DNA from: Candidatus Thorarchaeota archaeon
Lineage (GTDB): Archaea; Asgardarchaeota; Thorarchaeia; Thorarchaeales; Thorarchaeaceae
DNA length: 64,000 nt
NCBI GenBank assembly: GCA_048882485.1
Contig: JBHLRP010000001.1
Coordinates: 64,001 to 128,000, forward strand
Direction of reading: 5' to 3'
Made by a program: the position numbers and the translations under genes. The notes beneath the pieces were generated by a model that saw only the letters and a program-made list of their open reading frames with translations, was not told the origin of the DNA and made no database searches. Shown here one piece after another: positions 2,908-40,185 of this stretch. Within the stretch, counting starts at the first letter, position 1. Each line of letters starts with the position of its first letter.

Positions 2908-4131
2908 CTATTCGTATATCTCTTCAAGCCCATCCCAGGTGAATCCTAATGCCTCTGCGACTAGAACTGCTAGGTCCTTGACAATCTTGTTGGACCCAGA
3001 CAGCGGGAGTTGATCTTGCATGAAGTCCACACATGATGGACACGAAGCGGCGACGACTGAAGCACTAGTCTGTTCAATATCCTTCGCTTTCAGTTTGCTT
3101 ATTTGATTAGCAAATTCTGCATCTACTGCTCTGAGTACACCACCTGAACCACAGCAGTAACAGTTATTCTTGTTGTGCGGTAGCTCTTCAAACGTGACGC
3201 CGGGCAGATGTTCAAGAACTTTTCTTGGCTGCTCATAGAATCCCGAATTTCTCCCTGCATCACACCCATCATGGAATGTCACAGTCAGGTCTAGTGGGTT
3301 CGTAAACTCAAGCATGTTCCTATCTATTAGATCCTCAAAATACTCAGGACCGTACATGATCTGAAAAGGCGGATCGATGTCAAGAAACGCGTGGTATTCA
3401 TGTGCCCACATCTTATAGCAGCCCGGGCAATTTGTGATAACTCGTTCCACACCGAGTTCCTTGTACTTCTCAATATTATGCTCAGCAAATTGGCGAGCGG
3501 TTTCGAAGTCGCCTGTCATGATCATAGGCGCTCCACAACAGGCCTCGTCTTCGCCAAGAAAGGTGTACGACTCGCCAGCCTTGTCCATGATTAGCGTGGT
3601 GGCGATTGTCGCCTGAATGGAAACCCCTCGGAACGATGAAGCACATCCAAAGAAGAAGGCAGTCTTGGCCTCTTGACCCATCGTATCTAGAAGAGTGTCT
3701 TCATCTGGATGCCAATATGACCATCCCTCGACTCTATCCATCTGTGATTGTCCTTGAATGTTCTGGCTGTCAAGTAGAGTCTTCTTTGCCATCTCAAGTT
3801 GCTCAGGCCATAGGCCCATCTTCTGAAAGTCTGACCTCATTAATTGGTAGACCTGAACAAAAGGAATGTCCACTTGACATATCTCTTCACATCCTCCGCA
3901 GAGAGTGCATCCAAAGACAGCATCGCGGAGACCTTCCAGACCTTCCGAAGCCCTCAGGCTTCCCTGAGCAAGCGACCGTGCAATGATCATCTTACCCTTT
4001 CCAGAGTAGCTATCTCGACGCTTCACTTTGTAAGTTGGACAAGCGCCGTTACCGACTTGGCAAAAGCTACATTGAGCACACATATACGGCATGTCTTGAA
4101 GACCATACTTCTCCAGACTTTGGAATTTCAT
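2908..4131 (-). CDS. GlcF/HdrD-like (Fe-S)-binding protein: 2x[4Fe-4S] ferredoxin domain plus two CCG domains
   Basis: CAQCSFC-x6-CP, CTLCGGCEEIC; FFFGC..ACCG..NCPGC; HDGC..YCCG..SCPSC. Confidence 0.9.
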   Translation of the reverse strand: MKFQSLEKYGLQDMPYMCAQCSFCQVGNGACPTYKVKRRDSYSGKGKMIIARSLAQGSLRASEGLEGLRDAVFGCTLCGGCEEICQVDIPFVQVYQLMRSDFQKMGLWPEQLEMAKKTLLDSQNIQGQSQMDRVEGWSYWHPDEDTLLDTMGQEAKTAFFFGCASSFRGVSIQATIATTLIMDKAGESYTFLGEDEACCGAPMIMTGDFETARQFAEHNIEKYKELGVERVITNCPGCYKMWAHEYHAFLDIDPPFQIMYGPEYFEDLIDRNMLEFTNPLDLTVTFHDGCDAGRNSGFYEQPRKVLEHLPGVTFEELPHNKNNCYCCGSGGVLRAVDAEFANQISKLKAKDIEQTSASVVAASCPSCVDFMQDQLPLSGSNKIVKDLAVLVAEALGFTWDGLEEIYE

Positions 4132-8200: not shown

Positions 8201-10141
8201 ATGACACTGAAGCCAAAGCTAGTGACGGAACTCGCTGAGGTCTATGAAGACCGCGTGATCACAGAGAAGCATGAGCTCGTAATCCATGGCATGGATGTTG
8301 GTTCTTTGCCCAAACAAGTGGGCTGGTTGATGAACGTCAAGCCTGACGCGATTGTGCAACCCACAACCCCTGAAGAGATTAAGTACCTGTACGAGTTTGC
8401 AAACAAGTACAAGGTGCCTCTTGTGCCCCGGGGCGCCGGAACCTCAGGCTATGGTGGTGCTATTCCTCGTAAGGGTGGCATCATTGTCGATATGCGCATC
8501 ATGAATAAGATCGTGGAAATTGACGAGGAGAATATGACCGTCACCGTTGAACCCGGACTCTCTTGGGCGAACCTGCAATTCGAGCTAAACCGCAAGAACT
8601 TCGATTTGCGCTGCTATCCCTCCTCTGGACTCTCAGCAACCATCGGTGGATGGGTTGCACAGGGCGGCGATGGAATTGGCTCTCTCAAATATGGAAACAT
8701 CAACAAGAACGTTGTCGCTTTTGAGGTAGTCTTGCCTAATGGCAAGGTCGTCAAGAGCAAGGACTGTGACCTGTTCTGCGACACCGAGGGCATACTCGGA
8801 ATAATCACAAAGGTCACCCTGAAGATTAAGCCTCTCACACCGATTAAGGTAATTGTGTCAAGTTTCCCTGAGAATTATCTGATGGTCCATGCCATTGAGA
8901 AGATACTCGAAGATGGCCCTCTTCCATTCACGATTAAGTTTGAAGAGTCCAAATACACTGACTTGAAGAAGAAGATCTGGGACAGTGAAGAGAGGTTCCC
9001 ATTCCCTGTTCATCACGGCAGCATTATGGTTGCATACGATGGAGATGAAGAGGAGATTGCAGAAGGCTTCAGAGTTGTTGAAGAAGTCACGGAGATGTAC
9101 AAGGGAACTGTCTACGATGAGCATGTCGCTGCTCACGAGTGGCATGACCGCTTCTATCCAATGCGAGTCAAGAAGGCTGGTCCCACCCTCGTCGTTGGCC
9201 AAGCATTTGCTCCCCTCGAGAACCTCACAGCAATACTGGATGATTGGCAATTTGAACAGGGATCTGCGCAAGCTGGCATTGACGGCTATGTTAACTCACC
9301 AAATGCCGTCACTATGATGGGCTATTTCCTCGAAGATGAGCGCCGTAGGTTCTTCATGTTATCATGGGCTCAGAGCTTTGTTGTTTTCAAGATTGCACAA
9401 AGGCACGGCGGCCACGCACACTCAACGGGAATCTGGTTTGCTAACCAAGCTAGTCAATACTTTGGAAAACAGCGATTGGCAAAGATTCGTGCAGCCAAGC
9501 TCAAGTACGACAAAAAGGAGATATCAAACCCTGGGAAAGTGTTCGCCTACTGGCTACCCCTCATTCTCAAGTTTGGTAAGTATTTCCTATGGATATTCTA
9601 TGACCTATTCAGGAATGGATTTGGCAGAATCGCTCCAATACTTCTAAAGTGGCTCCAGAACCTCCCACCACTCAAGTGGATGCTGCGGTGGGGCCGAGCG
9701 CATAGTCCCTGGCCAGTGCAATATGGATTAGGATGTTGCATGGTCGATGGTGCAGCTGGAATCGCGTCACGATGGGACTTTGAACGATTCGGGATGCTCC
9801 CGCTCTTTGGGCCGAGACAGTGTGATGTGCTATGGATATCTGGGTCTCTAACAAAGAAGATGGCTCCGCGACTGCGAAGAGTCTATGAGATGATGCCAGA
9901 CCCCAAGTTCGTCATCGCCTTCGGACAGTGTGCAGCCAGTGGGGGAGTCTTTTGGGACGGATACTCCTTGCAGGTACCACCTGAGTCTGTAGTCCCTGTC
10001 GACGTTTACCTGCCCGGCTGTCCTCCGAAGCCATCTGACTTCATCAGGGCTCATCTGATACTTCAGAACAAGATTCGTGCAGGCACGACACACTGGCAGC
10101 TGAAGTATGAGAACCAGGACGCAATGGGGATGATCCAATGA
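8201..10141 (+). CDS. nuoB: Fusion: FAD-binding oxidoreductase (GlcD/D-lactate dehydrogenase fold) + complex I subunit NuoB
   Basis: N-part PRGAGTSGYGGA, YPSSGLSATIGGWVAQGGDGIGSLKYG, NPGK; C-part GLGCC, DFERFG, PRQCDVL, VYEMMPDPKFVIAFGQC, VPVDVYLPGCPP; ATG 8201 with GGAGAG SD. Confidence 0.93.
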   Translation: MTLKPKLVTELAEVYEDRVITEKHELVIHGMDVGSLPKQVGWLMNVKPDAIVQPTTPEEIKYLYEFANKYKVPLVPRGAGTSGYGGAIPRKGGIIVDMRIMNKIVEIDEENMTVTVEPGLSWANLQFELNRKNFDLRCYPSSGLSATIGGWVAQGGDGIGSLKYGNINKNVVAFEVVLPNGKVVKSKDCDLFCDTEGILGIITKVTLKIKPLTPIKVIVSSFPENYLMVHAIEKILEDGPLPFTIKFEESKYTDLKKKIWDSEERFPFPVHHGSIMVAYDGDEEEIAEGFRVVEEVTEMYKGTVYDEHVAAHEWHDRFYPMRVKKAGPTLVVGQAFAPLENLTAILDDWQFEQGSAQAGIDGYVNSPNAVTMMGYFLEDERRRFFMLSWAQSFVVFKIAQRHGGHAHSTGIWFANQASQYFGKQRLAKIRAAKLKYDKKEISNPGKVFAYWLPLILKFGKYFLWIFYDLFRNGFGRIAPILLKWLQNLPPLKWMLRWGRAHSPWPVQYGLGCCMVDGAAGIASRWDFERFGMLPLFGPRQCDVLWISGSLTKKMAPRLRRVYEMMPDPKFVIAFGQCAASGGVFWDGYSLQVPPESVVPVDVYLPGCPPKPSDFIRAHLILQNKIRAGTTHWQLKYENQDAMGMIQ

Positions 10142-10671
10142 AATTGCGTGAAGACAGTGACCAGTACTGCATGCTGCTGATTGGCACAATTATTCTGAGT
10201 GCTTATGTCTTCGACCTCCTGCTAGCTTCCATTGCAGATACTGCAATGGCGCTGCACTTCCCATTCATGGCTGGCGGTCCGCTGATAATGGTGTTCTTTC
10301 TCGTTGGATACTTCAGGCCGAAGCGAGGCAGGATAAAGGTCAACATGCTCTCGATGGCAATTGTCATTGGAGTTCTCTACACAATCTACGCCTTGGTCTA
10401 CTTTGGCAGTGACATCATCTATGCATCCTGGGGAATGGGCGGCGCAATCCTTCTCGCAGGTGGCTTCTCAATGCTGGATCCAATGGAGGTAAGCGTGACT
10501 CCAGGAATTATGGAAGTCAGCGACTACAAATACAAGCCGCTACCAGAGCCTGAGCCCGTGGGAGAAGAAGCCAGCGAAGGTGAAGCTGAGTCAGAAGCGG
10601 CACCTGAACCAGAATCTAGTGACGCAGCTGAGGAATCAACTGAATCACCCGAGGAAGCTCCAACTGAATAG
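10138..10671 (+). CDS. Hypothetical 4-TM membrane protein with acidic tail
   Basis: ATGA overlap with the upstream gene; four hydrophobic segments; Glu/Pro-rich C-terminus. Confidence 0.75.
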   Translation: MKLREDSDQYCMLLIGTIILSAYVFDLLLASIADTAMALHFPFMAGGPLIMVFFLVGYFRPKRGRIKVNMLSMAIVIGVLYTIYALVYFGSDIIYASWGMGGAILLAGGFSMLDPMEVSVTPGIMEVSDYKYKPLPEPEPVGEEASEGEAESEAAPEPESSDAAEESTESPEEAPTE

Positions 10672-10760: not shown

Positions 10761-11120
10761 TCATTCACGAAGCCAAGCAAACGCAGCAAAGGCTAGAAGC
10801 AGACCAAAGGCAACCCATGCAAAGAGGAGAATACCTGCTAGGTCCGTGTACTGAGTTATATCCAAATAGGCATGTACGCCACCGAAGATACCGGAAGCCA
10901 TCGTGGCACCTATTCGTCCATTGCGTGTTGCTGCATATGCAATACTAAGAGTCGCTACTACGAAGAACAGCCCACTCAAGAAGATGAAGTATTGGAAGTT
11001 GAGATCTATCGGTGCCACAGTCAAGATGATCCAGAAGTATGCTCCAATGAATCCCATTCCGATTAGAAGCGCGAGGTAATAGAAGAATGTACCCTCTTCT
11101 TTGTATGACAATTGTATCAC
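10761..11120 (-). CDS. Small hypothetical 4-TM membrane protein
   Basis: Strongly hydrophobic 119-aa ORF; AGGT SD-like site and TATA-like element upstream. Confidence 0.7.
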   Translation of the reverse strand: MIQLSYKEEGTFFYYLALLIGMGFIGAYFWIILTVAPIDLNFQYFIFLSGLFFVVATLSIAYAATRNGRIGATMASGIFGGVHAYLDITQYTDLAGILLFAWVAFGLLLAFAAFAWLRE

Positions 11121-11454: not shown

Positions 11455-11913
11455 TTGCAGACAGATAGGCTGTTTCTCCAATTCATCCCAGTCTTAGTGT
11501 GGGCCATTCTTGTAATTGTCCTAATTGTGATCATGCTGTTGGCATCATGGGTTCTGCGGCCCCATATACTGCAGAACTCTGAGAAGACATCTACATATGA
11601 ATGTGGAGAGGAGCCAATAGGGCCAGCAAGAATGTCATTTCCCTATAGTTACATCATCTACACAGTTCTCTTCGTCATCATAGATGTAATGGGCGCATTT
11701 CTCTGGCTGCTTTCTGTATCCCCGCTACGGTTGAACCCAGTAGTCGCTTGGCAGACATTCATCTTTGTAGTGATTATCATGGGTGCAATTGGATACGCAA
11801 TGAGATATCTGCCTCAAGCCTCACTTGATGGTAAGGAAACTCTGGAGGCATATCGCGCTGCGAAAGCGAGACATCTTGAGAAACCACGCCACCCAGGGAG
11901 GGAGCATAACTAA
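11455..11913 (+). CDS. nuoA: Complex I subunit A
   Basis: EKTSTYECGEEPIG motif, three TMs. Confidence 0.93.
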   Translation: MQTDRLFLQFIPVLVWAILVIVLIVIMLLASWVLRPHILQNSEKTSTYECGEEPIGPARMSFPYSYIIYTVLFVIIDVMGAFLWLLSVSPLRLNPVVAWQTFIFVVIIMGAIGYAMRYLPQASLDGKETLEAYRAAKARHLEKPRHPGREHN

Positions 11914-12587
11914 TGCAAGGATTTGAGTCCACTTTCGAGTCAGTGGAGTTTCTGTTGATTGCAGGAATTGTAATTGTTCTAGCTTACCTCGCTCTGGAAC
12001 ATAGAGAGATCGTCTATGCTGCATTCTTCTTTGGATTCATGGCGTCGTTTGTAGCAGGATTCTTCCTTTTGTTGGAAGCGCCTTTTGTTGCTGGTATGCA
12101 GATTGCGGTGTATACTGGAGGCATAAGTGCGTTGATCATATTTGGTGTGCTCCTACTACCAAGAGCACAAGACTCCACACTCGAGTCAATTGAGTCGCCC
12201 CGTGCAAAGAAGGTTGGCATCCTTGTATCTAGCTCCATAATGTTTCTCTCTGCAATTCTAGCTCTGACCTTCCCATGGAGTGAAACAATTCCAGAAGGCA
12301 CAATAGACGCTTCAAACAACGTTGCTCTTCTCGCTGAGTGGCTCTGGGGTGATCACGGAATCTACGTTCAGATCATTGCACTCATCATTGTGACATCTCT
12401 CGTGGGTGTCATCGTACTCATGAAGATGGATAAGGCAGAACTGATGAAGGGTATAGTTGCTGAGTTTGGCATCGAAGCAGCACCAGAACCTAAAGAGCCT
12501 GAGCCTGAGCCAGAAGAGTCTCCGGAGCCTGAGGAGACCCCGGAAGTAACTCCTGAGGCGGAAGTCAGTGAGGAGGTGACTGACTAA
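11913..12587 (+). CDS. nuoJ: Complex I subunit J with acidic tail
   Basis: LEAPFVAGMQIAVYTGGISALIIF motif. Confidence 0.92.
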   Translation: MQGFESTFESVEFLLIAGIVIVLAYLALEHREIVYAAFFFGFMASFVAGFFLLLEAPFVAGMQIAVYTGGISALIIFGVLLLPRAQDSTLESIESPRAKKVGILVSSSIMFLSAILALTFPWSETIPEGTIDASNNVALLAEWLWGDHGIYVQIIALIIVTSLVGVIVLMKMDKAELMKGIVAEFGIEAAPEPKEPEPEPEESPEPEETPEVTPEAEVSEEVTD

Positions 12588-12907
12588 TGGTCCCGCTTTC
12601 TTGGTATCTTGCTGTTGCATTCATCCTAATTGGCCTAGGAGCCTATGGAATGATGGTGAAGAGGAACCTCATTAGAATCCTGATCGGGGCGGAAATTATG
12701 GGGAACGGAGTTAGCATCGCTATAGCTGCTTTTGCGGTCTACAGCCCTACCTTTACGCTGACAGGACAGGCTCTCATCATTCTCATGATATCAGTTGCCG
12801 CAGCTCACACTGCTTTAGCCTTGGTTTTGATGCTTGCTTACAATAGGCGGCATGGAACAGTGGACCTGGGAAGACCAATCTCACAGGAGGATAAGATCGA
12901 TGTCTGA
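12587..12907 (+). CDS. nuoK: Complex I subunit K
   Basis: KRNLIRILIGAEIM; ISVAAAH (the canonical second Glu is His here). Confidence 0.92.
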   Translation: MVPLSWYLAVAFILIGLGAYGMMVKRNLIRILIGAEIMGNGVSIAIAAFAVYSPTFTLTGQALIILMISVAAAHTALALVLMLAYNRRHGTVDLGRPISQEDKIDV

Positions 12908-13421
12908 AGGTGCTCCGATGTCTGGTGCCACATTTGGTAGGCAGATTGTCAGCAAGTTTCCTGGTGTTGAATGTACTCCAAAGGAAGATGGTATCCTTGA
13001 GTGCATGGTACCAGCGGACAAAATCAGAGATGTTGTTGGGATGATTGACGAGCAGATTGATGATGCATTTCCAGAGAGCGTTTTTGGAGTTGACCTTCAA
13101 GAAGACAAGTATGAGGTCATCTACATTTTCTGGTCGCGAGCCAATAGAACTCAATATCACCTTCGAGTTTCACTTGAGGGTACCAATCCCGAGGTGGATA
13201 CAATCTGTGATATTTTCCCAGGCATGGAGTGGCATGAGAGAGAAACCTGGGAGATGTTTGGAATCACCTTCAAAGGACATCCTGACCTCCGGCTTTTGTT
13301 GCTTCCTGAGGAGCTCGAAGGGAAATATCCTCTGAGGAAGAGCTTCGTGACAGATAGGGCACGGCTCGAGGAGGCCGACAGAACGCCTCCAAAGACGCCA
13401 GAAGGAGGTGCGACTGAATGA
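12900..13421 (+). CDS. nuoC: Complex I subunit C
   Basis: WHERETWEMFGITFKGHPDLRLLLLP..YPLRKSF; start moved to ATG 12900 (GGAGG SD). Confidence 0.93.
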   Translation: MSEGAPMSGATFGRQIVSKFPGVECTPKEDGILECMVPADKIRDVVGMIDEQIDDAFPESVFGVDLQEDKYEVIYIFWSRANRTQYHLRVSLEGTNPEVDTICDIFPGMEWHERETWEMFGITFKGHPDLRLLLLPEELEGKYPLRKSFVTDRARLEEADRTPPKTPEGGATE

Positions 13422-14554
13422 GCCCTGACATTCTAGACGAAACAACCGAGGTCTGGTTCGGACCTCAGCACGTATCCGCACACGGATGGGCAGCTAGGCT
13501 TACACTCGTTGGAGACTTTGTAGTAGAATGCGATCCTAACGCAGGATATTTCCATCGATCAGCTGAGAAGTGCTTGGAGTTCAGGAACTTTAGGCAAGGG
13601 TCTCTCATCATGGAACGGCTCTGCATGCTTGAGGCATTTCTGGCTGAGTATCCTTACATCATGGCGGTTGAGAAGATTGCAGGACTAGAGGTACCTGAAC
13701 GAGCTAAGGTCATGCGAACCATCATGATGGAGGCTAGCCGAATACATTCATTGCAGTTCTGGTGGGGTCAGTTCTCAGCTGAACTTGGGCTTTTTGCGAT
13801 GTTGCTATGGCCCTGGGTCGACCGAGAGTTCTTCCTCGATACTTTCGAGGAACTCAGCGGGTCCCGTCATGCTGTCTCCTATAGTACACCCGGCGGTGTG
13901 AAGTACGACTTCACAGACAAGGTGCTCAAGAAGCTCGACATTGCCTTGGAGCGGTTTGAAGACCGAATGCCTACAATGCGTGATATGCTCATGGGCAGTC
14001 CCACTTTCCGAGCAAGGACAGAGAGCATTGGTCAATACACCTTGAAGCAAGGTCTGAAGTTTGGTCTAAGCGGTCCGCCAATCAAGGCATGTGGTCTGCC
14101 AATGGATCTACGAAAAGATGCCCCTGACCCGAATCTTGCCTACGATATGATTGATTGGGAAGTTCCAATTACTGAGAGCGAAGAACACCCCGGAGAGAGT
14201 GATGCCTACGACAGAATGGTCCAGCGATTCAAGGAGATGGAGACCTCAGTAGAGATAATTCGGAAATTGCTACCTTTAGTTCCTGACGGCCCCATTGTTG
14301 ATCCTAAGGCTCGAGCCAAGGCCAATAGGCTTCCAGAGGGTGAAGCCTACGGCCGTGTTGAGGGGACAAGAGGAATCTCAACCCTCTGGCTTAAGACTAC
14401 TGAAAAGGCGCAGACTCCTTACAGGGCCAAGATACGTGGTCCCTGTTTCAATTCTTACTACTCACTGAAGCATTTGGTTCCGGGTGCGAAGTTTGCAGAC
14501 TTCATTGTCGTTTTCGGATCGCTTGATCCGTATCCAGGGTGGTGGGATCGCTGA
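13418..14554 (+). CDS. nuoD: Complex I subunit D (no NiFe-binding CxxC pairs)
   Basis: FGPQHVSAHG, GYFHRSAEK, ERLCML, PGGV, EGTRG, PYRAKIRGP, SLDPYPGWWDR. Confidence 0.92.
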   Translation: MSPDILDETTEVWFGPQHVSAHGWAARLTLVGDFVVECDPNAGYFHRSAEKCLEFRNFRQGSLIMERLCMLEAFLAEYPYIMAVEKIAGLEVPERAKVMRTIMMEASRIHSLQFWWGQFSAELGLFAMLLWPWVDREFFLDTFEELSGSRHAVSYSTPGGVKYDFTDKVLKKLDIALERFEDRMPTMRDMLMGSPTFRARTESIGQYTLKQGLKFGLSGPPIKACGLPMDLRKDAPDPNLAYDMIDWEVPITESEEHPGESDAYDRMVQRFKEMETSVEIIRKLLPLVPDGPIVDPKARAKANRLPEGEAYGRVEGTRGISTLWLKTTEKAQTPYRAKIRGPCFNSYYSLKHLVPGAKFADFIVVFGSLDPYPGWWDR

Positions 14555-14565
14555 TGGGAGGTGTC

Positions 14566-15699
14566 ATGTTGCAGATAGATTTCTTTGCATGGCTTCAAGG
14601 AATCCCTCAATGGCTATATGGAGTCATTCAGTGGTTGTTCGACATTGTCAGTGGAATCTTCTACTGGATATGGGGCATCTTCACATGGATTTGGGCAGCT
14701 CTATTCGATGTAGCCAACTTCTTCTTCCTAATTCGAGCAGTGCTATTCCCAGGTCTTGTCTTCATTCTCATGACAATCATCTTTGCTGTTTGGTATACGC
14801 GCAAGCTCTGGGGCAGAATTCAAGACAGGCGTGGTCCATTTCACTTGGGTAAGTACGGAGGACTTCAACTCTTCGCTGATGCGATTAAGCTCGTAGGAAA
14901 GGAAACCATAATCCCTGACAAGGCGAAACGCTGGATGTATCGGTTCCTTCCATCACTATTGCTGTTGGTTGTCTTAATCCCATTTGCGTTCATCCCATGG
15001 GATCCAATTTGGTACATTGCTGATTTATCGGTCGGTCTAGTGCTAGTCTTCGCATTTCTAACTGCAGTGCCCATAGTAGCATTGCTATCTGGTTGGATAA
15101 GTGGGTCCAAGTATACACTCATAGGTGGTTTCAGAGCAGCTAATAATCAGTTTGCTTGTGAGATTCCATTAATCATCTCATCAGTAGGCCCGGCGATGCT
15201 GGCTGGTTCTTTGAGTGTGATGGGAATCGCAATGGCTCAAACAAATGTCTGGTTCATATTCCTTCTACCAATCAATGTAGCCACATTCCTTGTGGCCGCG
15301 ATAGGCTCTGTGGGAACCTTTCCATTTGATGCTCCTGTGGCTGACTCGGAGGTTATCTTTGGCTGGAGGACAGAGTTCAGTGGCATCTACTTCACACTAA
15401 CCTATTTCGCAGAGTTTGCTGAGCAGGCTCTCTATTCAGCACTCATTGTTGCACTGTTCCTTGGTGGGTTCCATGGACCGGCTTTCTTGCCAGGAAGCGT
15501 GATATTCATCATCAAGTTCCTGATAGTATTCTTCTTCTTCGTCGTTGTGACGTCATCGTTCCATCGGCTAAGACAAGACCAGATTGTGTACTTCTGCTGG
15601 AAGTATCTACTTCCATTGTCAATACTGAATGTTGTGCTTGTGATGTTGGGAATAGCCAACATCCCCTTGCTACAAGCAGTTCTTGGAATAGGAGGGTAG
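14566..15699 (+). CDS. nuoH: Complex I subunit H
   Basis: RKLWGRIQDRRGP, GGLQLFADAIKLVGKE, PFD..DSE..GWRTEFSG; GGAGGTG SD before ATG 14566. Confidence 0.93.
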   Translation: MLQIDFFAWLQGIPQWLYGVIQWLFDIVSGIFYWIWGIFTWIWAALFDVANFFFLIRAVLFPGLVFILMTIIFAVWYTRKLWGRIQDRRGPFHLGKYGGLQLFADAIKLVGKETIIPDKAKRWMYRFLPSLLLLVVLIPFAFIPWDPIWYIADLSVGLVLVFAFLTAVPIVALLSGWISGSKYTLIGGFRAANNQFACEIPLIISSVGPAMLAGSLSVMGIAMAQTNVWFIFLLPINVATFLVAAIGSVGTFPFDAPVADSEVIFGWRTEFSGIYFTLTYFAEFAEQALYSALIVALFLGGFHGPAFLPGSVIFIIKFLIVFFFFVVVTSSFHRLRQDQIVYFCWKYLLPLSILNVVLVMLGIANIPLLQAVLGIGG

Positions 15700-15705
15700 A
15701 GCAAG

Positions 15706-16137
15706 ATGGGATTCTTCAGAAATCTAGGTGACATATTCCAGATATTGAGACACGTATTCCGTCAGGTGATGTCCCGTCCATTCACGTACTTCTATCCATT
15801 TGAGGACAGGGAATATCCAGAGAGGACTCGTGGAAGGCATATCTTTGTGCGTGAGAATTGCACATCATGCATGCAGTGTGTGCGGGCTTGTCCTGTTGTC
15901 GCTATTAGCATCGATAAGAGTGACAAGCATTTCGAGAAAGACGCCGCTCTATACTTTGACTATACGCGGTGCATATTCTGTGGACTATGCGTTCAAGCCT
16001 GCAGGTTTGATGCTTTGTTTCACACTCAGGTTGTTGATATCAGCGAAGGAGAGAGGGAGGACTTGCTCTATGGTCCTGACAAGATAGAAACTCTCGATCG
16101 AGACCCGCTTGAGTGGCGTGGAAGGAGGTTCCGTTGA
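15706..16137 (+). CDS. nuoI: Complex I subunit I (2x[4Fe-4S])
   Basis: CTSCMQCVRACP and CIFCGLCVQACR. Confidence 0.93.
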   Translation: MGFFRNLGDIFQILRHVFRQVMSRPFTYFYPFEDREYPERTRGRHIFVRENCTSCMQCVRACPVVAISIDKSDKHFEKDAALYFDYTRCIFCGLCVQACRFDALFHTQVVDISEGEREDLLYGPDKIETLDRDPLEWRGRRFR

Positions 16138-17654
16138 TGCAACTAGCCTTCGAGTTCCCATTCATGACCTTGTCCTTGCTAGTCCTCTTCATTGGAGGGC
16201 TCTTGATCTACCTCCTTCGCGGTCGACTCGAAAAGACATCAGGGAAAATTGCTGTTGGCTTCTCGGCGGTAAGCGCATTGCTAATGGTGCCTCCCTTCTA
16301 TCGTATCATGGTTGAAGGTGGTCGGGCTGCTGAGAAGGTCAGCTGGTCAGTTGTACTTGGAGAGTTTGGTCTCTACCTAGATGAGATTGCTTTTCCAATT
16401 ACATTCGCAGTTGTTGTCCTAGGATTCCTTTCGGTTATCTATGCTGTAGGCTATACTGAGCATACTGAGAATAAGCCCACTTTCTTTGCAAACACATTGT
16501 TCTTCATCATGGGCATGCAAGGCGTGACGCTTGCAACCAATTTGCTGGAATTCTTCATCTTTTGGGAGATCATGCTTGTCCCATCGTACTTCCTAATTCT
16601 GTTTTGGGGCTTGCCTGAAACCCGAAAACGAACTGCCATCAAGTTTTGGCTCTATACACAGGCTGGAGCGGTCTGTATTTTGATCGCCCTAGGTCTCTTG
16701 TACTTCTTCACAGGCACCTTTGAGCTCTACACAATTCTGGCAATGGCTCCTGCCATCTGGTCAGACCTCCGACTGCTGCAGATTATTTTCATCTTGTTCG
16801 CTGCTGGCTTCCTAGTCAAAATGGCGGCCTTCCCTCTGCATTGGTGGTTACCTCCAGTCCACGCCGAAGCTCCGACTCCTATATCGGTTCTGCTATCCGG
16901 AGCCATGATTGAAACCGGTGCTTATGCTCTCGTCCGTTTCGGAATCGTTACGCTTGGACCTGCAGCTGCCTCGCTCTCATTCTGGATTGGAGTACTTGGT
17001 GTTGCCACAATGTTCTACGGAGGAGCTATGGCGCTTGTACAGAAAGACATCAAGAGACTGCTGGCTTACTCATCAGTTTCCCAGATGGGCTATGTCCTCT
17101 TTGCCCTGGGCATGATTACCACATTCGGTGTAGCTGGCGGTCTGTTTCATCTCATCAATCATGCCTTCAGCAAGGGTGTCTTATTTATGACTGCTGGAGC
17201 CGTGATTCATCAGACTCATCTGAGGGATGTTGACAAGATGGGCGGTCTCTCAAACAAGATGCCCATCACTGCATTCGCTGCAGCTATCGGTGCAATGAGC
17301 ATTGCAGGGAGTCCTCCCCTCTCTGGATTCGCTAGTGAATGGATGATGTTTCTAGGGGGCTTTGATGCTGTTCTGATGGGACCAGGAGGTCTCGCCCGAC
17401 CTGAGTTCTTTTTCCTATCCATTTTGGCTGTATCAAGCTCCATTGTGAGTGCGGGCTACATGCTTCGGTATCTTTGGAAAGTCTTCCTTGGACCAAATCC
17501 AACAGAACTGGAGGATGTGAAAGAGAGTTCCAACTGGATGACTGCCCCAATGGTTGTCCTTGGTTTTCTCATAGTGTTGTTTGGAGTATTCCCAGGTTTG
17601 GCACTGGATGTCATTTTACCTGGTGTACAAGAAATAGCTACTCTGCTTCCATGA
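16137..17654 (+). CDS. nuoM: Extra NuoM-like antiporter subunit (M1)
   Basis: FFIFWEIMLVP, AIKFWLYT, VKMAAFPLHWWLP.HAEAPTP, KRLLAYSS, GFASEW; ATG 16137 with GGAGGT SD. Confidence 0.85.
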   Translation: MQLAFEFPFMTLSLLVLFIGGLLIYLLRGRLEKTSGKIAVGFSAVSALLMVPPFYRIMVEGGRAAEKVSWSVVLGEFGLYLDEIAFPITFAVVVLGFLSVIYAVGYTEHTENKPTFFANTLFFIMGMQGVTLATNLLEFFIFWEIMLVPSYFLILFWGLPETRKRTAIKFWLYTQAGAVCILIALGLLYFFTGTFELYTILAMAPAIWSDLRLLQIIFILFAAGFLVKMAAFPLHWWLPPVHAEAPTPISVLLSGAMIETGAYALVRFGIVTLGPAAASLSFWIGVLGVATMFYGGAMALVQKDIKRLLAYSSVSQMGYVLFALGMITTFGVAGGLFHLINHAFSKGVLFMTAGAVIHQTHLRDVDKMGGLSNKMPITAFAAAIGAMSIAGSPPLSGFASEWMMFLGGFDAVLMGPGGLARPEFFFLSILAVSSSIVSAGYMLRYLWKVFLGPNPTELEDVKESSNWMTAPMVVLGFLIVLFGVFPGLALDVILPGVQEIATLLP

Positions 17655-17665
17655 GGTGATCGACA

Positions 17666-19984
17666 ATGTTGCTTGGACTACCCTATTGGCTTATCCTCGT
17701 CATTCCGCTGCTTGGCTCTCTCCTCGTTCCACTTGTTGGAAAATTCAGTGAGCGCGCGAGAGACTGGACCCCTGCAATCCTCATGGGAGCCTCTATGGTT
17801 CTATGCTGGTCGCTTCTACCTGAGATTGGAAACCCGACCCAGACCACGCACTGGATGTGGATTGAGGTCTTAGGACTCGAGTTCGAGGTTCTCCTGGACC
17901 CGCTCTCAGTTGTTATGGGGGTTCTAGCCAGCACTCTGTGTTTTCTCATCTATGTCTACTCTACAGAGTACATGGCTCATGAGGGCGATCGTGACCGCTT
18001 CTTCTTCCTCATGCTGGCATTCGGCGGTGGTATGCTGACGCTAGTGCTCAGCAACAACCTTCTGATTGCATTTATCGGATGGGAGATCATGGGATTTTGC
18101 TCCTATGGTTTGATAGGATTCTGGAATGACAAGAGGAACCCTCCCGAAACCGACCCATCAGACATTCACTCCACAAACCCGCTTCTTCAATTCAAGACCG
18201 AGGGACAGTACAACACCCACTGCGGGACCAAGGCATTCGTCGTCACGAGAATCGGTGATGCATTCATGTTGGGCGGTATCCTGATTCTGTTCGTCTTCAC
18301 TGGCACCTTTTCCTTCACTGAGATGGCGGCTGATGCCCAATCATGGTGGAGCACTATGGCAGGTATCGGGATGCTTGTGCCGACATTCCTACTCATCTTC
18401 ATGGGTGCAATCGGCAAGTCCGGACAGGCTCCACTGCAGGTCTGGTTGCCGGAAGCAATGGCTGGCCCGACAAGCGTTTCGGCTCTCATTCACGCTGCGA
18501 CGATGGTCAAGGCGGGTGTCTATATCACCGCTCGATTCCTGGTCACAATGGTGTCAGCAGCCGGTGGTGAGGGCAATGGTGGTGAACATATCGCTGGACT
18601 TCAGGCAATTGGTTTTGAAGCAGCGTTGACCTTTTTCATCTTTGTAGCAATCATCGGCGGTATTACTGCTCTCATGACAGCGACCATGGGAATGGTCTCA
18701 AACGAGCTCAAGCAGATACTGGCATTCTCAACACTCAGCCAGCTTGGATACATGATGCTCTCACTAGGTGTGGGCGGCGTCCTTCAGGCTGAGGGACTTC
18801 ACTTCACTGATGCATACTTGAGCGGTGTGATGCATGTGATATCGCATGGTGCATTCAAGGCCCTTCTATTCCTTGCATCAGGAGGTGTTATACACGCCGT
18901 CCATACCAAGTTCATCACCAAGATGGGCGGTCTGAAGCAATACATGCGGAAGACCTTCATCGTGATGTGGATTGGTGTGCTTGCCCTCGCAGGTATCCCA
19001 CCGTTCTCAGGGTTCTGGTCAAAGGACTCTATCATCGAGTATGCCTATGAATTGGCGGTTGAATGGCCAAATCCGATAGGTTGGATGCTATTCTTCTTTG
19101 CTGTCTTAGCCGCAGCCTGCACGATATTCTATAGCATTCGACTCATGGGCATCACTTTCTATGGACCTTCCAAGGAGAGTCATGACCATCACGAGTCACA
19201 CAGCTCACACGAGAATGAGGATTCAGAAGAGCCTGAAGACCTACATTATGATGGCTTAGAGGAAAATGAAGAATCTCATGATAGTGACTCAGAGAAGCAA
19301 GAAGAACCACATGACAACCACTCCGAAGAGCAGCATCACTCAACTCCTCAAGATCCGGGTCCGGCAATGATGGTGCCATTATATCTACTAGCGGCCTTTA
19401 CTGTCATTGCATTCCTTGTCTTCCCGTTTGTTCAGAACATTGTACTTGAAGAGAGTCACTCTTGGGCTGAGAACTTAGCGCACATGATAGAGGTCAAGCT
19501 GACCTACCCAGGAATTGTGCCTTTCATGATAACGCTAGGCGCGCTCGCCCTCGGCGGAGTTCCTGGATACATGATGTACATCAGGGGTGCTGACTCTCCC
19601 AATACTTGGGTGCCGGAGAAGGGCTTCCGAAGGAGATTTCACAATTTCCTAAAGCATCGCTGGTACATCAATGAATTCTACTATTGGATATTGAACAAAT
19701 TCCTGAGTGCGGCAGAGCGTTATCGAGTGAATGTTGACAACAAAATCATTGATGGCATCGACTTCAAGTCTGCTGACGCAGGGAAAGGTCTAGCAACGAA
19801 GCTGAAATGGTTTGATGATAATGTGGTTGATGGCTTTGCTGAGGGGGTTTCTACTTACAGTGTTGCAGCTTCAGAGTCCAGTCAGTCTGCACAGACTGGT
19901 CGAGTCAATGACTATGTGGGAGTGATAATGTTCGGGATTGGAATTCTGGTCATAATCGTTCTATTATCTCTGGGGGTGCTCTAG
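17666..19984 (+). CDS. nuoL: Complex I subunit L with extended lateral helix and His/acid-rich loop
   Basis: GWEIMG, RIGD, GKSGQAPLQVWLPEAMAGPT, HAATMV, GFWSKD, QTGRVNDY plus final TM. Confidence 0.93.
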   Translation: MLLGLPYWLILVIPLLGSLLVPLVGKFSERARDWTPAILMGASMVLCWSLLPEIGNPTQTTHWMWIEVLGLEFEVLLDPLSVVMGVLASTLCFLIYVYSTEYMAHEGDRDRFFFLMLAFGGGMLTLVLSNNLLIAFIGWEIMGFCSYGLIGFWNDKRNPPETDPSDIHSTNPLLQFKTEGQYNTHCGTKAFVVTRIGDAFMLGGILILFVFTGTFSFTEMAADAQSWWSTMAGIGMLVPTFLLIFMGAIGKSGQAPLQVWLPEAMAGPTSVSALIHAATMVKAGVYITARFLVTMVSAAGGEGNGGEHIAGLQAIGFEAALTFFIFVAIIGGITALMTATMGMVSNELKQILAFSTLSQLGYMMLSLGVGGVLQAEGLHFTDAYLSGVMHVISHGAFKALLFLASGGVIHAVHTKFITKMGGLKQYMRKTFIVMWIGVLALAGIPPFSGFWSKDSIIEYAYELAVEWPNPIGWMLFFFAVLAAACTIFYSIRLMGITFYGPSKESHDHHESHSSHENEDSEEPEDLHYDGLEENEESHDSDSEKQEEPHDNHSEEQHHSTPQDPGPAMMVPLYLLAAFTVIAFLVFPFVQNIVLEESHSWAENLAHMIEVKLTYPGIVPFMITLGALALGGVPGYMMYIRGADSPNTWVPEKGFRRRFHNFLKHRWYINEFYYWILNKFLSAAERYRVNVDNKIIDGIDFKSADAGKGLATKLKWFDDNVVDGFAEGVSTYSVAASESSQSAQTGRVNDYVGVIMFGIGILVIIVLLSLGVL

Positions 19985-19985
19985 A

Positions 19986-21530
19986 GTGCAGCTCGGATTC
20001 ATCCAAGACCTCATCGCAATGTTGCCAATGGACAATATACTACCACTGATGCTATTTGCTCCATTAGTCGCAGCATTCTTTGCCTACATACTCGGTGCAA
20101 GAGGGGGTAGGGCTCTCACGCTCATTGTCACATTCGTTGAACTCCTGCTTTCGCTTGTCCTCATTGTAGCAATTCTGCCGAATCCAGGAGCTATGTGGTT
20201 TGAATGGTCGTTCACACTTAGCGATGTGCAATTCGGGAGCTGGAATGCTCTCCTCCAGATATACCTAGGTGTTGACGGAATATCCGTTGCCATGGTGTTT
20301 CTTTCAAACCTCGTGGTCTTCATTGCAGCACTCAGTTCAAACCATATCAAGAAATCACAGCATCTGTACTACATGTTCTTCCTGATGCTCCAGACAGGTC
20401 TGCTTGGCGTATTCATGTCATTTGATCTGATCAGCTTCTTCATCTTCTGGGAATTGGTCTTGATACCGATGTTCTTCATAATAGGAAGATGGGGCGAAGA
20501 GGGATGTGAACACGCAGCTGTCAAGTTCTTCATCTACACACATCTCGGCTCAGCTGTGATGTTGGTCTCATTCATGGCACTGTTCTTCCTAGGACCCGGT
20601 ACATTCAACATGATTGCGATCAAGGCTGCACCAATTGCAATCAACATTCAGATTGGCTTTGCACTGGCTGTCTTTCTGGGGGCTGGCGTCAAGCTTCCTG
20701 TCTTTCCATTGCACAACTGGCTTCCGTGGGCCCACGTCAAGGCGCCAACTCCTGGTTCAGTGATACTCGCTGGAATACTCTTGAAGATGGGTGGATACGG
20801 GTTCATTAGACTGGGTCTTTGGATGGTTCCGCAAGGATTTGCTCGACTCAGTATCCCATTCGCTGTCCTCGCGGTCTTCACATGCATCTATGCAGCCTTT
20901 GTGGCAATGGGTCAGACTGACGTTAAGTCAATGGTAGCCTATACATCAATCAACCACATGGCATGGGTGTTGCTTGGAGTTGCCATCGGAGGATTTGCCA
21001 TCGGAGGTGGAGCCACAGAGGGCCAACTCTTCTCAGCCAGCCTTGCAGTTCAAGGCGCAGTATTCATGATGGTATCCCATGGGATGATATCCTCTGTCAT
21101 GTTCATTCTTGCCGGCCAGCTGAAGTACTCGGCTGGAAGCAGACTGATTCCTGATGTCATGGGTCTTATGACGAAAGCTCCTAGAATGTCCGCTGTCTTT
21201 ATCCTCGCGGTCTTTGCAGCCTTTGGGTTGCCCGGAATGAGCGGATTCATTGCAGAGGCCCTTGTACTGTTTGGGTCAGTGAACATCTACATATGGTCTG
21301 GCTTCATTGCATTTGGAATCTTTGTCACGGTAGGATATCTCCTTTGGACCCTGAACCGAATTGTGTTTAGTGATCCAGACCCTGAGAAGGAGGTCACTGA
21401 AGCACCATGGAGTGATCTCATTGCACCAATCTTGATGATGATACCAGTAATCATCCTCGGGCTTTGGCCAGATCTTGTGCTCAATCTAGTGATACCGATA
21501 GTCAACGATATGATAGGGGTGATTCCATAA
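19986..21530 (+). CDS. nuoM: Complex I subunit M (canonical, M2)
   Basis: FFIFWELVLIPM, VKLPVFPLHNWLPWAH, LLKMGGYG, GFIAE. Confidence 0.92.
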   Translation: MQLGFIQDLIAMLPMDNILPLMLFAPLVAAFFAYILGARGGRALTLIVTFVELLLSLVLIVAILPNPGAMWFEWSFTLSDVQFGSWNALLQIYLGVDGISVAMVFLSNLVVFIAALSSNHIKKSQHLYYMFFLMLQTGLLGVFMSFDLISFFIFWELVLIPMFFIIGRWGEEGCEHAAVKFFIYTHLGSAVMLVSFMALFFLGPGTFNMIAIKAAPIAINIQIGFALAVFLGAGVKLPVFPLHNWLPWAHVKAPTPGSVILAGILLKMGGYGFIRLGLWMVPQGFARLSIPFAVLAVFTCIYAAFVAMGQTDVKSMVAYTSINHMAWVLLGVAIGGFAIGGGATEGQLFSASLAVQGAVFMMVSHGMISSVMFILAGQLKYSAGSRLIPDVMGLMTKAPRMSAVFILAVFAAFGLPGMSGFIAEALVLFGSVNIYIWSGFIAFGIFVTVGYLLWTLNRIVFSDPDPEKEVTEAPWSDLIAPILMMIPVIILGLWPDLVLNLVIPIVNDMIGVIP

Positions 21531-23005
21531 TGCTACAGGTTTCCACAATAATCGATGCTATCAGCGACATCTTGAGTCCCTTCTTTGCACTAGTCCCAGC
21601 GGATTGGCTAGTATCATTACCAGCTTTGACGCTCATCCTATTCGGAATCTTGGCACTCATTGTAGGAATGAGAAGAAGTCCTTTGGCAGTCAGTTTCATT
21701 GGCATTGCCCTTGCAGGCTTTGAGATGATTCTCATTGACCCGGGTTCTTCCTTTGGAGGACTATTTGTAAGAGACATGTTTGGTGATTTCTTCATCTGGA
21801 TCATTCTGGTTGTCGCATTCATAATACTGCTTTCGTCGACGACATACGGTGGAAATAAGGGTACATACAACTTTCTCCTCATGATGTCATTTGCTGGCGC
21901 AATTTGGGTCGTTATGGCAACCGATCTTGTGGCGCTGTTTTTGGCATGGGAACTCATGAGTACGCCGACATATGTGCTTGTTGCGCTAGGGCCCCACAGA
22001 GGAGCTATTGATGGAGCTACCAAGTACTTCGTCATGGGACTCCTATCGTCAACTCTCATCCTATTTGGAATCGCGATTGTTTATGGTACAACAGGTGCCA
22101 CAAGCTTTGCCGCTGTTGCTGCATTTGTTAGTGTCGTCTGGAGCGCCGCTTCTCCGTCTGCCTACGCAATGCTTCTGTCCATGGTGCTGTTCCTGATCGG
22201 TTTTGGATTCAAGGTCGGTGTGTTCCCAGGATGGATGTGGGTCCCCGACGCATATGCAACTGCTGACGGAAGCGTCACAGGATATCTGGCCGGTGCAACC
22301 AAGAAGACAGGTGTAAGTGCCCTCCTTCGGATACTACTCGTTGCATTTGTTGCAGCACAAATGGAATGGATGCCTGTCGTAGTCACTATCTCGATTCTTT
22401 CCATGATCATTGGGAATATTCTTGCACTCGCTCAGCGCAACATCATGAGAATGTTAGCCTTCTCATCCATCATGATGATGGGTCTACTCTTCGTGGGGAT
22501 TGCAGCCGGAACGGCCTTTGGAGCAGCAGCTGCGATGTTTACCGCGTTTGCCCATGCACTCATCAAGACGGGCGCGTTTATCCTGGTTTGGGCATTGGCT
22601 GTTTCCATTGGAAAAGAGGTCACATATGATGATTTGAAAGGACTCAGTACTCGTGCTCCGATTGTTGCTCTATTGATGGCAATAATGGTCTTTGCTCTAG
22701 CAGGCGCACCATTCACAGCAGGATTCTGGTTCAAGTGGTTTCTATTGCCTGGAGCTGCAGTCGATGCTGGGCTTTGGTGGTTGGCGATAATTGCTGTGCT
22801 GAACTCAGTATTTGCACTTGGCTATTACTTGAGAATCCTAAGGTATTGCTACTTCATGGAACCAACAGAAGGTACAACATTACGCATACCGACGATTCCT
22901 CTTGTTGCGGTGCTACTTGCAGTTGTGGGTACAATAATGATTGGCGTCTTTCCGGGTCTAATCCTGGACTATGCATCGTTGGCAGCTGGAGTCCTCGTCC
23001 CATAG
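21530..23005 (+). CDS. nuoN: Complex I subunit N
   Basis: AWELMS, KYF, GFKVG..WVPDAY, GFWFKW; TAATG overlap and GGGGTGA SD. Confidence 0.92.
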   Translation: MLQVSTIIDAISDILSPFFALVPADWLVSLPALTLILFGILALIVGMRRSPLAVSFIGIALAGFEMILIDPGSSFGGLFVRDMFGDFFIWIILVVAFIILLSSTTYGGNKGTYNFLLMMSFAGAIWVVMATDLVALFLAWELMSTPTYVLVALGPHRGAIDGATKYFVMGLLSSTLILFGIAIVYGTTGATSFAAVAAFVSVVWSAASPSAYAMLLSMVLFLIGFGFKVGVFPGWMWVPDAYATADGSVTGYLAGATKKTGVSALLRILLVAFVAAQMEWMPVVVTISILSMIIGNILALAQRNIMRMLAFSSIMMMGLLFVGIAAGTAFGAAAAMFTAFAHALIKTGAFILVWALAVSIGKEVTYDDLKGLSTRAPIVALLMAIMVFALAGAPFTAGFWFKWFLLPGAAVDAGLWWLAIIAVLNSVFALGYYLRILRYCYFMEPTEGTTLRIPTIPLVAVLLAVVGTIMIGVFPGLILDYASLAAGVLVP

Positions 23006-23211: not shown

Positions 23212-23850
23212 TCATTCAATTGGTCTGTCACTGTATTTTCTCACTGCCGAGCCAATGAGGTCAGTGAATAGGGCTTCAATATTCTCCCCTGTTTTTGCAC
23301 TGGTTTCAACATGAGTGACATCAAGCCAATCACTTAGCATTTGTCCTGCTTCAGGGGGTACCCGTCTATCCTTCAAGTCAATTTTGTTGGCCACTATTGT
23401 CACTGTAGCATTGGGATTCACTGACATGAAATTCGAATACCAATCATATACATGAAGAAACGACCTGGGATTTGTCACATCATAGACAATGAAGGCAATA
23501 CTGGCTCCAGCCATATATCGCAGCCTAAGCTCCTTGAAATCTGGTTGCCCGCCAAGGTCCCATAGAACAATCTGTACAGGCACAGTCATCTCTTCTGTCA
23601 GGGCAACTTGAAGATTCTTGACCGCTATGTTTGTCCCCATAGTTGCCTGGTACGACTCACCAAAGCTATTCTCAGTATATCGGATTATACAGCTTGTCTT
23701 ACCTGAAGCCGCGTCACCTAGGCTAACCATTTTGAACATATAACGCGGTATGCTTCTTGACAAGCTAAACTCCTTCCCGGAATATCTCTCATTGATGACT
23801 AAGTCCAACATATAATCGCATTTCAGATATACAGATTGAAGTGACAACAA
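23212..23850 (-). CDS. Ras-superfamily (Rab-like) small GTPase; true start may be downstream
   Basis: G1 GDAASGKTS, G2 T, G3 WDLGGQ, G4 NKID, G5 ETSAK. Confidence 0.92.
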   Translation of the reverse strand: MLSLQSVYLKCDYMLDLVINERYSGKEFSLSRSIPRYMFKMVSLGDAASGKTSCIIRYTENSFGESYQATMGTNIAVKNLQVALTEEMTVPVQIVLWDLGGQPDFKELRLRYMAGASIAFIVYDVTNPRSFLHVYDWYSNFMSVNPNATVTIVANKIDLKDRRVPPEAGQMLSDWLDVTHVETSAKTGENIEALFTDLIGSAVRKYSDRPIE

Positions 23851-38802: not shown

Positions 38803-38837
38803 ACCCCACTTGCGTGCTTATGCGCGGATTCCGTAGA

Positions 38838-39779: not shown

Positions 39780-40185
39780 GATGGATCGACCTCTCCTCTC
39801 ACCCTGGGATTGGATTACGAAAGGGAATGTAATCTCACCTTTCTTTGAAGTCAAAGTCGTGGTGTGGCGCTGATAAGATCAAGAAGGTGCTCAATCCCTG
39901 TAGGTGGACCCTTAGATTTATATACATAAACGCATTTAGCCTTATAAGTCTTTCGAACCTTTATATACCTAGGTTCCACTCCCCTATTTTTCCCCCGCTA
40001 CACTGCGTATAGCTTCCTTTTGATATAAGTATTTTGACAAGTCCGTCCATTCTATTTCTGTCACCAGCCATTCCTTTTTTCGTAGGAAACATGTTATCCT
40101 CACTATAAGGTATGCAACAACACATCAGTTTCACCCAATAGAACGAGAAAAACATACTATCCTCATACATACATGTGGGAATTTC

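Follow-up and report, generated by a model that had tools for sequence, protein, structure and literature searches.

A conserved flavoprotein–NuoB fusion in a headless, four-antiporter complex I of Thorarchaeia

Here we describe a separate enzyme that is built into a core subunit of complex I across a whole family of Asgard archaea. The gene in question lies at 8201–10141 (+) of a 64,000-nucleotide stretch of the genome of a Candidatus Thorarchaeota archaeon (assembly GCA_048882485.1, contig JBHLRP010000001.1, positions 64,001 to 128,000, hereafter "the window"), and encodes a flavin adenine dinucleotide (FAD) oxidoreductase domain joined to the quinone-module subunit NuoB. Every part of the fusion system belongs to a known family. 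The family-wide variant of headless complex I to which it belongs is real and apparently undescribed, and the mechanism that we propose for it is plausible but unproven.

A conserved in-frame fusion of a flavoprotein to NuoB

The gene is a single stop-free frame of 646 amino acids (aa) from the ATG at 8201, as the original prediction, made from the letters of the window, had proposed; an alternative upstream TTG start would give 651 aa, and homologues are 646 aa long. The hidden Markov model search suggested as a check placed all three expected Pfam families above cut-off, namely FAD_binding_4 (E 1.6e-40), FAD-oxidase_C, and Oxidored_q6 (E 5e-24). The C-terminal part also passed the cut-offs of two NCBIfam NuoB models and matched Thermus Nqo6 with an E of 1.5e-41, and the predicted completeness of this NuoB was borne out, with the four ligands of cluster N2 at C512 and C513 (in tandem), C577, and C607. 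The NuoB portion (9635..10141, +) includes the N-terminal amphipathic helix that precedes the first strand, aa 479–498 aligning with free Asgard NuoBs and with Nqo6. As the alignment of free Asgard NuoBs extends upstream as far as about aa 479 (nt 9635), only ~30 residues represent a true linker, i.e., an amphipathic, aromatic-rich helical tail that is not transmembrane (aa 447–478; 9539..9634, +). The linker originally placed at ~9545–9700 was correctly described as amphipathic and aromatic, although about half of it is NuoB's own helix. Overall, aa 447–498 are predicted to form amphipathic helices without a transmembrane segment, and the mean identity of fused homologues over aa 448–497 is 83%. 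An AlphaFold2 model of the full fusion gave a predicted local distance difference test score (pLDDT) <50 for aa 495–646 and was uninformative on domain orientation.

Multiple lines of evidence confirm that the fusion is genuine. We recovered 45 full-length fused clusters with 72–96% identity from several databases, the named ones almost all from Thorarchaeota; one fused homologue lies in the same neighborhood on a 3.16-Mb single-contig genome, and run X5, which is not marked as a potential origin of this DNA, yielded a 914-bp contig that reads across the junction; these findings together rule out an assembly chimera or frameshift artefact. Among 87 Thorarchaeia genomes, an orthologous NuoB was detected in 59, of which 52 encode it in frames >600 aa, while six are cut by contig ends and one is frameshifted. 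In this sole split case (G024), nuoD is split as well, and an assembly error appears to be the cause. The fusion spans 12 of the 17 genera of Thorarchaeia, none of these 12 includes an intact free orthologous NuoB, and the FAD domain displays a dN/dS of ~0.02–0.04, consistent with purifying selection. In two genomes (G025, locus L038; G007, locus L050) the fusion stands apart from the remaining nuo operon, and the orthologous NuoD is still present there. Outside the family, a survey of 400 Asgard genomes yielded no fusion, all NuoB-type matches at the threshold used being in frames ≤353 aa. Likewise, in an exhaustive search of 1.84 billion representatives the full architecture formed one 50%-identity cluster, which indicates a single origin, and no second, independent fusion was found among the best 150 matches. 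The possibility of another NuoB in the genome was also rejected, as the three other PF01058 matches are soluble hydrogenase small subunits beside their large subunits, and the fused copy is the sole NuoB of the assembly. The predicted covalent tethering of a conserved flavoprotein to a subunit of the quinone module is hence supported well beyond this contig. In the available portions of the sources, reported NuoB fusions join other Nuo subunits only, and the fusions listed in surveys covering complex I or fused archaeal genes are B-C, C-D, and B-C-D alone (PMC11237513; bioRxiv 10.1101/2025.03.13.643058). No description of a flavoprotein–NuoB fusion was found in the literature searched, whose coverage excludes most subscription papers, in line with the original impression that this architecture had not been described.

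The flavin domain and its iron–sulfur partner

The N-terminal 446 aa (8201..9538, +) form a VAO/PCMH-fold FAD oxidoreductase domain that folds like mouse D-lactate dehydrogenase (D-LDH; LDHD) and ADPS. LDHD-type enzymes share with it the fold (TM-score 0.83 by target, ~23% identity) and the FAD-binding motifs, which are invariant among homologues. In mouse LDHD, the metal is coordinated by His398, His405, and Glu442, with His443 as the base, and each of the four is essential (PMC10589216). The aligned positions are occupied here by Tyr, a small aliphatic residue, Ser, and Thr, and the D-LDH metal/His site is missing across the whole clade of this FAD domain, which scored 137 against a cut-off of 568 for TIGR00387. 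A classical D-lactate or glycolate dehydrogenase is rejected on these missing active-site residues; the prediction of a GlcD/D-LDH-fold flavoprotein holds for the fold and the FAD motifs. Compared to metal-dependent D-2-hydroxyacid dehydrogenases (mouse LDHD, A. woodii LctD, GlcD), the flavin domain lacks counterparts of His398, His405, Glu442, and His443, carries the amphipathic tail, and has an Fe–S partner in place of an electron-transferring flavoprotein, while a substrate Arg may be common to both. Specifically, the invariant R317 has the same spacing from a Trp as the substrate-carboxylate Arg347 of LDHD, to which it may correspond, the alignment being gapped at this point. K324 and the D379-E380-R381 patch are also invariant.

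The candidate partner is an HdrD/GlcF/TfrB-like protein encoded at 2908..4131 (−), divergently oriented to the fusion, with two [4Fe-4S] motifs, two complete five-Cys CCG motifs, and no transmembrane segment. It falls below curated family cut-offs for TfrB (163 vs 385, its best NCBIfam match), HdrB (58 vs 345), and GlcF (60 vs 333). Both CCG motifs are of the Hdr style, unlike the clusters in the CCG domains of EtfD, which are non-catalytic (PMC13083937), and a heterodisulfide-type thiol chemistry is what the motifs of this partner would suggest. Orthologues of the FAD and CCG proteins follow the same genus pattern and lie ≤12 kb apart in all 51 genomes with both on one contig, although such counts come from related genomes, which are not independent, and thus describe conserved synteny rather than a statistical test. 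In addition, many natural FAD-Fe4-CCG fusions of 870–1030 aa occur in the FAD domain's sister clade. The gene between the CCG gene and the fusion (4256–7930) encodes a surface protein of 1224 aa with PKD/Ig repeats and a single CxxCH motif; its length varies between 770 and 1481 aa, and it is missing from this spot in many relatives. In some genera only, the CCG gene is followed by a DUF7530-PNPOx fusion and a PNPOx gene (here 1086–2838).

A model of fusion aa 1–500 in complex with the partner scored 0.91, against 0.18 for the best control; of 80 solved complexes, 58 attained the mark used, as did two of 110 mismatched pairs. Runs agreed in ≥98% of contacts, with a partner pLDDT of ≥91. In these models, partner residues 13–88, including the cluster ligand C21, contact the FAD-domain loops 79–81 and 142–147 and the invariant patches 318–330 and 379–381, which supports a modelled arrangement in which the ferredoxin end of the partner would bind the exposed FAD face. 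No solved structure of this pair together was found by sequence. In EtfD, the cubanes lead to a haem, and HdrDE overlays on EtfD (PMC13083937). By analogy, the FAD would occupy the place of the EtfD haem, or of HdrE, in the flavoprotein–CCG pair. The haem-b anchor of the HdrE/NarI family (PF02665) was not found in this genome, which is 90.5% complete.

The pair also exists without the pump. Two genomes of one genus (g14; 90% and 94% complete) retain the FAD, CCG, and MenA-like genes, and no orthologous NuoD or NuoB was found in them. Their flavoprotein is 498 aa long with 55–57% identity to the fused copies, adjoins the CCG and MenA-like genes, and is directly followed by an acyl-CoA ligase-like gene, the same gene that follows the nuo operon in the window. 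The tail of the g14 protein aligns without gaps to fusion residue 494, i.e., inside the NuoB helix, although no direct match of this tail to free NuoBs was detected. In the FAD tree, g14 is sister to all fused copies; in the RpoB tree, fusion-bearing and fusion-less genera are not separated (0% of bootstrap trees), with a weakly resolved backbone. The gap-free tail and the RpoB tree disfavor a pre-fusion relic, and a secondary loss of complex I is the simpler reading, whereas the FAD tree alone would allow the opposite order. Whichever the order of events, the FAD/CCG pair is maintained without complex I in this genus. In another Asgard class, one genome (G089, locus L111) encodes two FAD/CCG pairs 2–7 kb from nuoN/K/J/A/B, with a free NuoB 60% identical to the fused one; these pairs are not orthologous to the fusion pair.

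A headless pump with four antiporter-like subunits

Downstream of the fusion lies a nuo operon in the order nuoA, J, K, C, D, H, I, M, L, M, N, i.e., with every core subunit except B, as predicted, although the antiporter-like subunits number four and not three. Profile matches identified nuoA, nuoJ, and nuoK at 11455..12907 (+), followed by nuoC, nuoD, nuoH, and nuoI (12834..16137, +), in which NuoI carries two [4Fe-4S] motifs. The extra NuoM-type subunit (16113..17654, +) precedes NuoL (17666..19984, +) and the nuoM and nuoN genes (19986..23005, +). Both NuoM proteins pass TIGR01972 (315.8 and 412.1 bits for a cut-off of 263.8), and the NuoL lateral helix is 25–26 residues longer than in three related L subunits (motif spacing of 78 vs 52–53). 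A second NuoM and a ~26-residue insertion in NuoL helix HL are the signature of 2M complex I (summarized in PMC9040806). The Thorarchaeia pump shares both features, but is archaeal, has a NuoD without the quinone Tyr, and has its nuoB in the fusion, probably relocated there from the operon. NuoL further contains a His/Glu/Asp-rich low-complexity insertion of ~55 aa (aa 500–560) ahead of the lateral helix region. Extra antiporter subunits are also encoded in free-NuoB operons of other Asgard lineages (L054, L112, L113, L115, L117), with two extra M-like genes ahead of nuoL in L117, and 2M-type pumps may thus be widespread in the Asgard phylum. In a sister-family genome (G001), the same four-antiporter headless operon includes a free nuoB flanked by nuoK and nuoC, and no orthologue of the FAD domain was detected, i.e., this pump type exists without the flavin module. 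The position of nuoB in this genome suggests that the gene probably moved from the operon into the fusion.

Two small genes separate the fusion from nuoA. The first (10138..10671, +) overlaps the fusion stop codon, encodes a membrane protein of no known family that is a possible accessory subunit, and lies downstream of the fusion in 19 of the 20 loci retrieved; an Atlas search with this 177-aa neighbor returned hypothetical proteins only, all <0.9. The second (10761..11120, −) encodes a conserved hydrophobic protein without a Pfam match.

NuoD (13418–14554) retains the quinone-loop His pair (H18 and H22, equivalent to Nqo4 H34/H38), as do all aligned NuoDs of the fused lineage. It also retains one of the four NiFe cysteines, and this single cysteine, together with the tandem CC of the fused NuoB in place of the hydrogenase CxxC, led us to reject a group 4 [NiFe]-hydrogenase. 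The membrane-bound sulfane reductase (MBS; PDB 6u8y; PMC7684303) resembles this complex in that MbsL is the best solved match of NuoD, the quinone Tyr is missing, and the first NiFe-site Cys is kept. It differs in that NuoB here has the tandem cysteines of complex I, NuoD retains the loop histidines but has Tyr in place of the second MbsL Cys, and the membrane arm is of the NuoAJKLMN type; MBS identity was rejected because MbsJ-type spaced cysteines with a three-Cys proximal cluster are lacking and the pair of MbsL cysteines is incomplete. The C-terminal motif of NuoD has gained an invariant Tyr at the position of the pocket Val or second NiFe-site Cys, which could possibly compensate for the lost quinone Tyr, and some related archaeal NuoDs also have Tyr-Trp at this position. 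Separately, several genomes (L064–L067, L073) encode another B-C-D-H-I cluster, of the group 4 hydrogenase type, and the stretch retrieved around it shows no antiporter genes.

The predicted absence of nuoEFG and fpoF is correct within the window, but other contigs of the genome carry an unlinked NuoE/F/G-like trio and an FrhB/FpoF-like gene, all below the curated NuoF, NuoG, FrhB, and FpoF cut-offs. The NuoE/F/G-like genes (HydABC- or FDH-like) are co-oriented with the nfnA/nfnB-like genes that follow them (L069:4193–11106). The genome also includes Mvh-type hydrogenase and HdrA-like genes, and Mcr was not found in it. For a lipid carrier, 33 of the 37 genomes with both genes on one contig have a MenA-like gene ≤5 kb from the CCG gene; in the loci examined, it adjoins prenyl synthase and reductase genes. 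This count, too, comes from related genomes and describes conserved synteny rather than a statistical test. The menA cut-off is passed in 41 of the 87 genomes. In this genome, the MenA-like gene is 23 kb off within the same island, and MenG is above cut-off. This respiratory island, upstream of the window (contig 30–64 kb), further encodes a six-CxxCH cytochrome c, ccm-like genes, a reductase, and two prenyl synthase-like genes alongside the MenA-like gene, as well as an EB_dh-type haem protein, a NapH-like protein, and four more FAD/CCG pairs without the D-LDH site.

Possible mechanisms and related systems

In complex I, the N-terminus of NuoB lies on the membrane near the quinone entrance, while donors enter at NuoI, so that the flavin module would be tied to the carrier side. 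The explanation we favor, to which we would give an even chance, is that a ferredoxin-fed headless 2M complex I carries a flavin/Fe–S thiol-disulfide:quinone oxidoreductase at its membrane face, with the flavoprotein standing in for HdrE. The fused protein would be the working NuoB of the four-antiporter pump, and its N-terminal two thirds would make up one half of another enzyme, anchored to the pump on the surface of the membrane, next to where quinone enters. This second enzyme, composed of the flavoprotein and the HdrD-like protein of 2908–4131, would pass electrons along a non-cubane Fe–S pair (the thiol/disulfide site), two successive cubanes, and the FAD, which would take the place of the HdrE/EtfD haem domain and exchange electrons with a menaquinone-like lipid carrier. 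The pump would take low-potential electrons at NuoI from ferredoxin, or from the unlinked FpoF-like or NuoEFG-like proteins, and would share the carrier with the FAD/CCG unit without any direct path from FAD to N2. The likelier direction would be from thiol to quinone, which is downhill (~−143 to −74 mV for coenzyme M/coenzyme B to menaquinone): both products of Mvh-Hdr bifurcation, reduced ferredoxin and thiols, would be re-oxidized at one site, and the quinol drained by the cytochromes of the island. In reverse, from quinol to disulfide, the system would act as an Fpo-HdrD-like ferredoxin:disulfide reductase. The fusion, its conservation, the single NuoB, the states of the motifs, the linkage and co-occurrence of the genes, and the 2M features are direct observations, and the docking of the FAD domain with the ferredoxin domain is modelled; we infer quinone as the FAD substrate, the position of the second enzyme on the complex, its thiol chemistry, and the direction of flow.

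Several observations weigh against this explanation. Met replaces the quinone-binding Tyr (Nqo4 Y87) in 10 of 10 fused-lineage NuoDs, and the solved structure closest to NuoD is MbsL, which together make quinone reduction by the pump uncertain. The MenA-like protein of this genome scored just under the cut-off (101.6 vs 102.15), and the quinone head-group pathway is missing from the genome (MenD and MenB not above cut-off, MqnA/D not found), so that the carrier would need salvage or another synthesis route. Quinone binding at the FAD site is itself inferred, the thiol partner of the CCG protein is putative, and the seemingly kept D-LDH carboxylate Arg (R317) and the invariant Lys could suit a soluble anionic substrate. 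Finally, the complex score derives from alignments made by ourselves, with ligands riding along, is also passed by close cousins of a true partner, and does not single out the 2908–4131 paralogue among roughly a dozen.

One alternative is a self-contained substrate:disulfide oxidoreductase parked on the pump, in which the FAD would oxidize or reduce a soluble or lipid anion and the CCG protein would act on a thiol/disulfide. TfrAB and the proposed GlcD-HdrD are of this type, with the fusion here serving only to anchor, co-express, or help assemble. The persistence of the pair without complex I in g14, TfrB as the best NCBIfam match of the partner, the conserved R317 and K324, and a modelled electron wire with two ends and no need for a third partner are all consistent with such an enzyme, and a VAO-family protein on complex I has a precedent (PDB 7a24 chain z). 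This precedent, GLDH on plant complex I intermediates, has an assembly role. A parked enzyme would however leave unexplained the tight MenA-like linkage, the 83%-conserved linker, and the retention of the fused state in 12 genera, in none of which a free orthologous NuoB survives intact, and we consider it rather unlikely. The original prediction was instead of a direct input replacing NuoEFG, with electrons passing from a substrate via FAD and the CCG clusters to NuoI, N2, and an acceptor, coupled to proton pumping. The covalent link to the quinone module stands, the operon lacks a donor module, an FAD+CCG unit, with its ~850 aa, might extend as far as NuoI, and CCG clusters can relay rather than catalyze, as in EtfD (PMC13083937). 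Yet the role as a substrate dehydrogenase is weakened on several counts, including the missing D-2-hydroxyacid residues, an FAD face modelled as occupied by the ferredoxin end of an HdrD-like protein whose CCG end has full catalytic-type cysteines, the survival of the pair without the pump in g14, the G001 pump with its free NuoB and no FAD orthologue, and the other donor candidates in the genome. Moreover, the fusion point at the NuoB N-terminus is far from the NuoI entry cluster, and a lactate-type donor (~−190 mV) reducing menaquinone (~−74 mV) cannot drive ~5 H+ per 2 electrons, as ferredoxin could, which would leave a four-antiporter pump short of driving force. A direct input thus appears decidedly unlikely.

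Two further alternatives were considered. In reverse electron transport, the flavin module would make quinol from a mid-potential substrate or thiol, and the 2M pump would run backwards on the proton gradient to reduce ferredoxin. The two NuoM and the lengthened helix are compatible with this, reverse flow from quinol to ferredoxin has been put forward as the role of extra-pump complexes (PMC9040806), and the anatomy is common to the favored explanation; however, Mvh-Hdr-type genes can already make reduced ferredoxin by bifurcation, and no other strong gradient-generating chain is demonstrated in the genome, making this highly unlikely. Alternatively, electrons could leave N2 directly to the HdrD-like partner or flavin, with the flavoprotein as an adaptor, as assumed for Fpo-HdrD of Methanomassiliicoccus. 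Such a quinone-free output would agree with the lost NuoD Tyr and the HdrE that was not found. In the standing model, Fpo and HdrD interact directly (PMC7374477), and an association of Fpo with HdrD/GlcD pairs has already been proposed (PMC10667645). A quinone-free output is nevertheless most improbable given the MenA-like and MenG genes, both kept quinone-loop histidines, and the location of N2, which is buried between NuoB, D, and I.

In the boldest reading, the complex would be a genetically hard-wired respiratory supercomplex of new design, in which a ferredoxin-driven four-antiporter complex I is joined to a flavin-based, haem-free HdrE substitute that links an HdrD-type thiol/disulfide site to quinone at the pump entrance or couples it directly into the pump; we regard this stronger claim as tentative and somewhat short of even. 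If true, it would account for the recycling of thiols in archaea that use Hdr bifurcation but lack Mcr, and would mean that a widespread clade of "GlcD-HdrD" flavoproteins serves quinone chemistry and not lactate oxidation. The closest known systems already contain several of its elements. The headless Fpo-like complex and HdrD of Methanomassiliicoccales (PMC7374477) likewise combine an operon without NuoEFG/FpoF, an HdrD-type CCG protein without HdrE, and Mvh-Hdr genes; they differ from the system described here, with its NuoB-fused VAO-fold flavoprotein modelled as holding the CCG protein, its four antiporters, its MenA-like and MenG genes, and Mcr not found. The proposed Fpo-associated HdrD/GlcD of Bathyarchaeia, Methanomethylicia, and Korarchaeia (PMC10667645, PMC6421429) has the same three elements (a flavoprotein of the GlcD fold, an HdrD-like protein, and an Fpo-like pump), but is a genomic conjecture with lactate as the assumed donor, whereas Thorarchaeia have a gene fusion in which lactate-type residues are absent. 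HdrDE and mycobacterial EtfD (PDB 9ojn; PMC13083937) similarly use two cubanes and two CCG domains to join a soluble redox site to a membrane carrier, through a haem-b membrane domain that is absent here, where FAD is the modelled neighbor of the cubanes. Taken together, the fusion gives a testable form to the conjecture of a partnership between headless Fpo-like pumps and HdrD/GlcD pairs in HdrE-less archaea. Thorarchaeia are usually drawn as fermenters; the 2M pump, quinone genes, and nearby cytochromes suggest a high-stoichiometry membrane electron transport chain in this group.

Beyond these systems, the window encodes a Ras-family small GTPase directly after nuoN (23212–23850), a 1835-aa open reading frame without a Pfam match (28978–34485), tandem TFIIB genes (37798–39854), and a LarA-family racemase (44415–45812). 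Elsewhere in the survey, one 486-aa NuoB/MbhJ-like protein (P0241) includes a LAGLIDADG-type domain, probably representing an intein in a small subunit.

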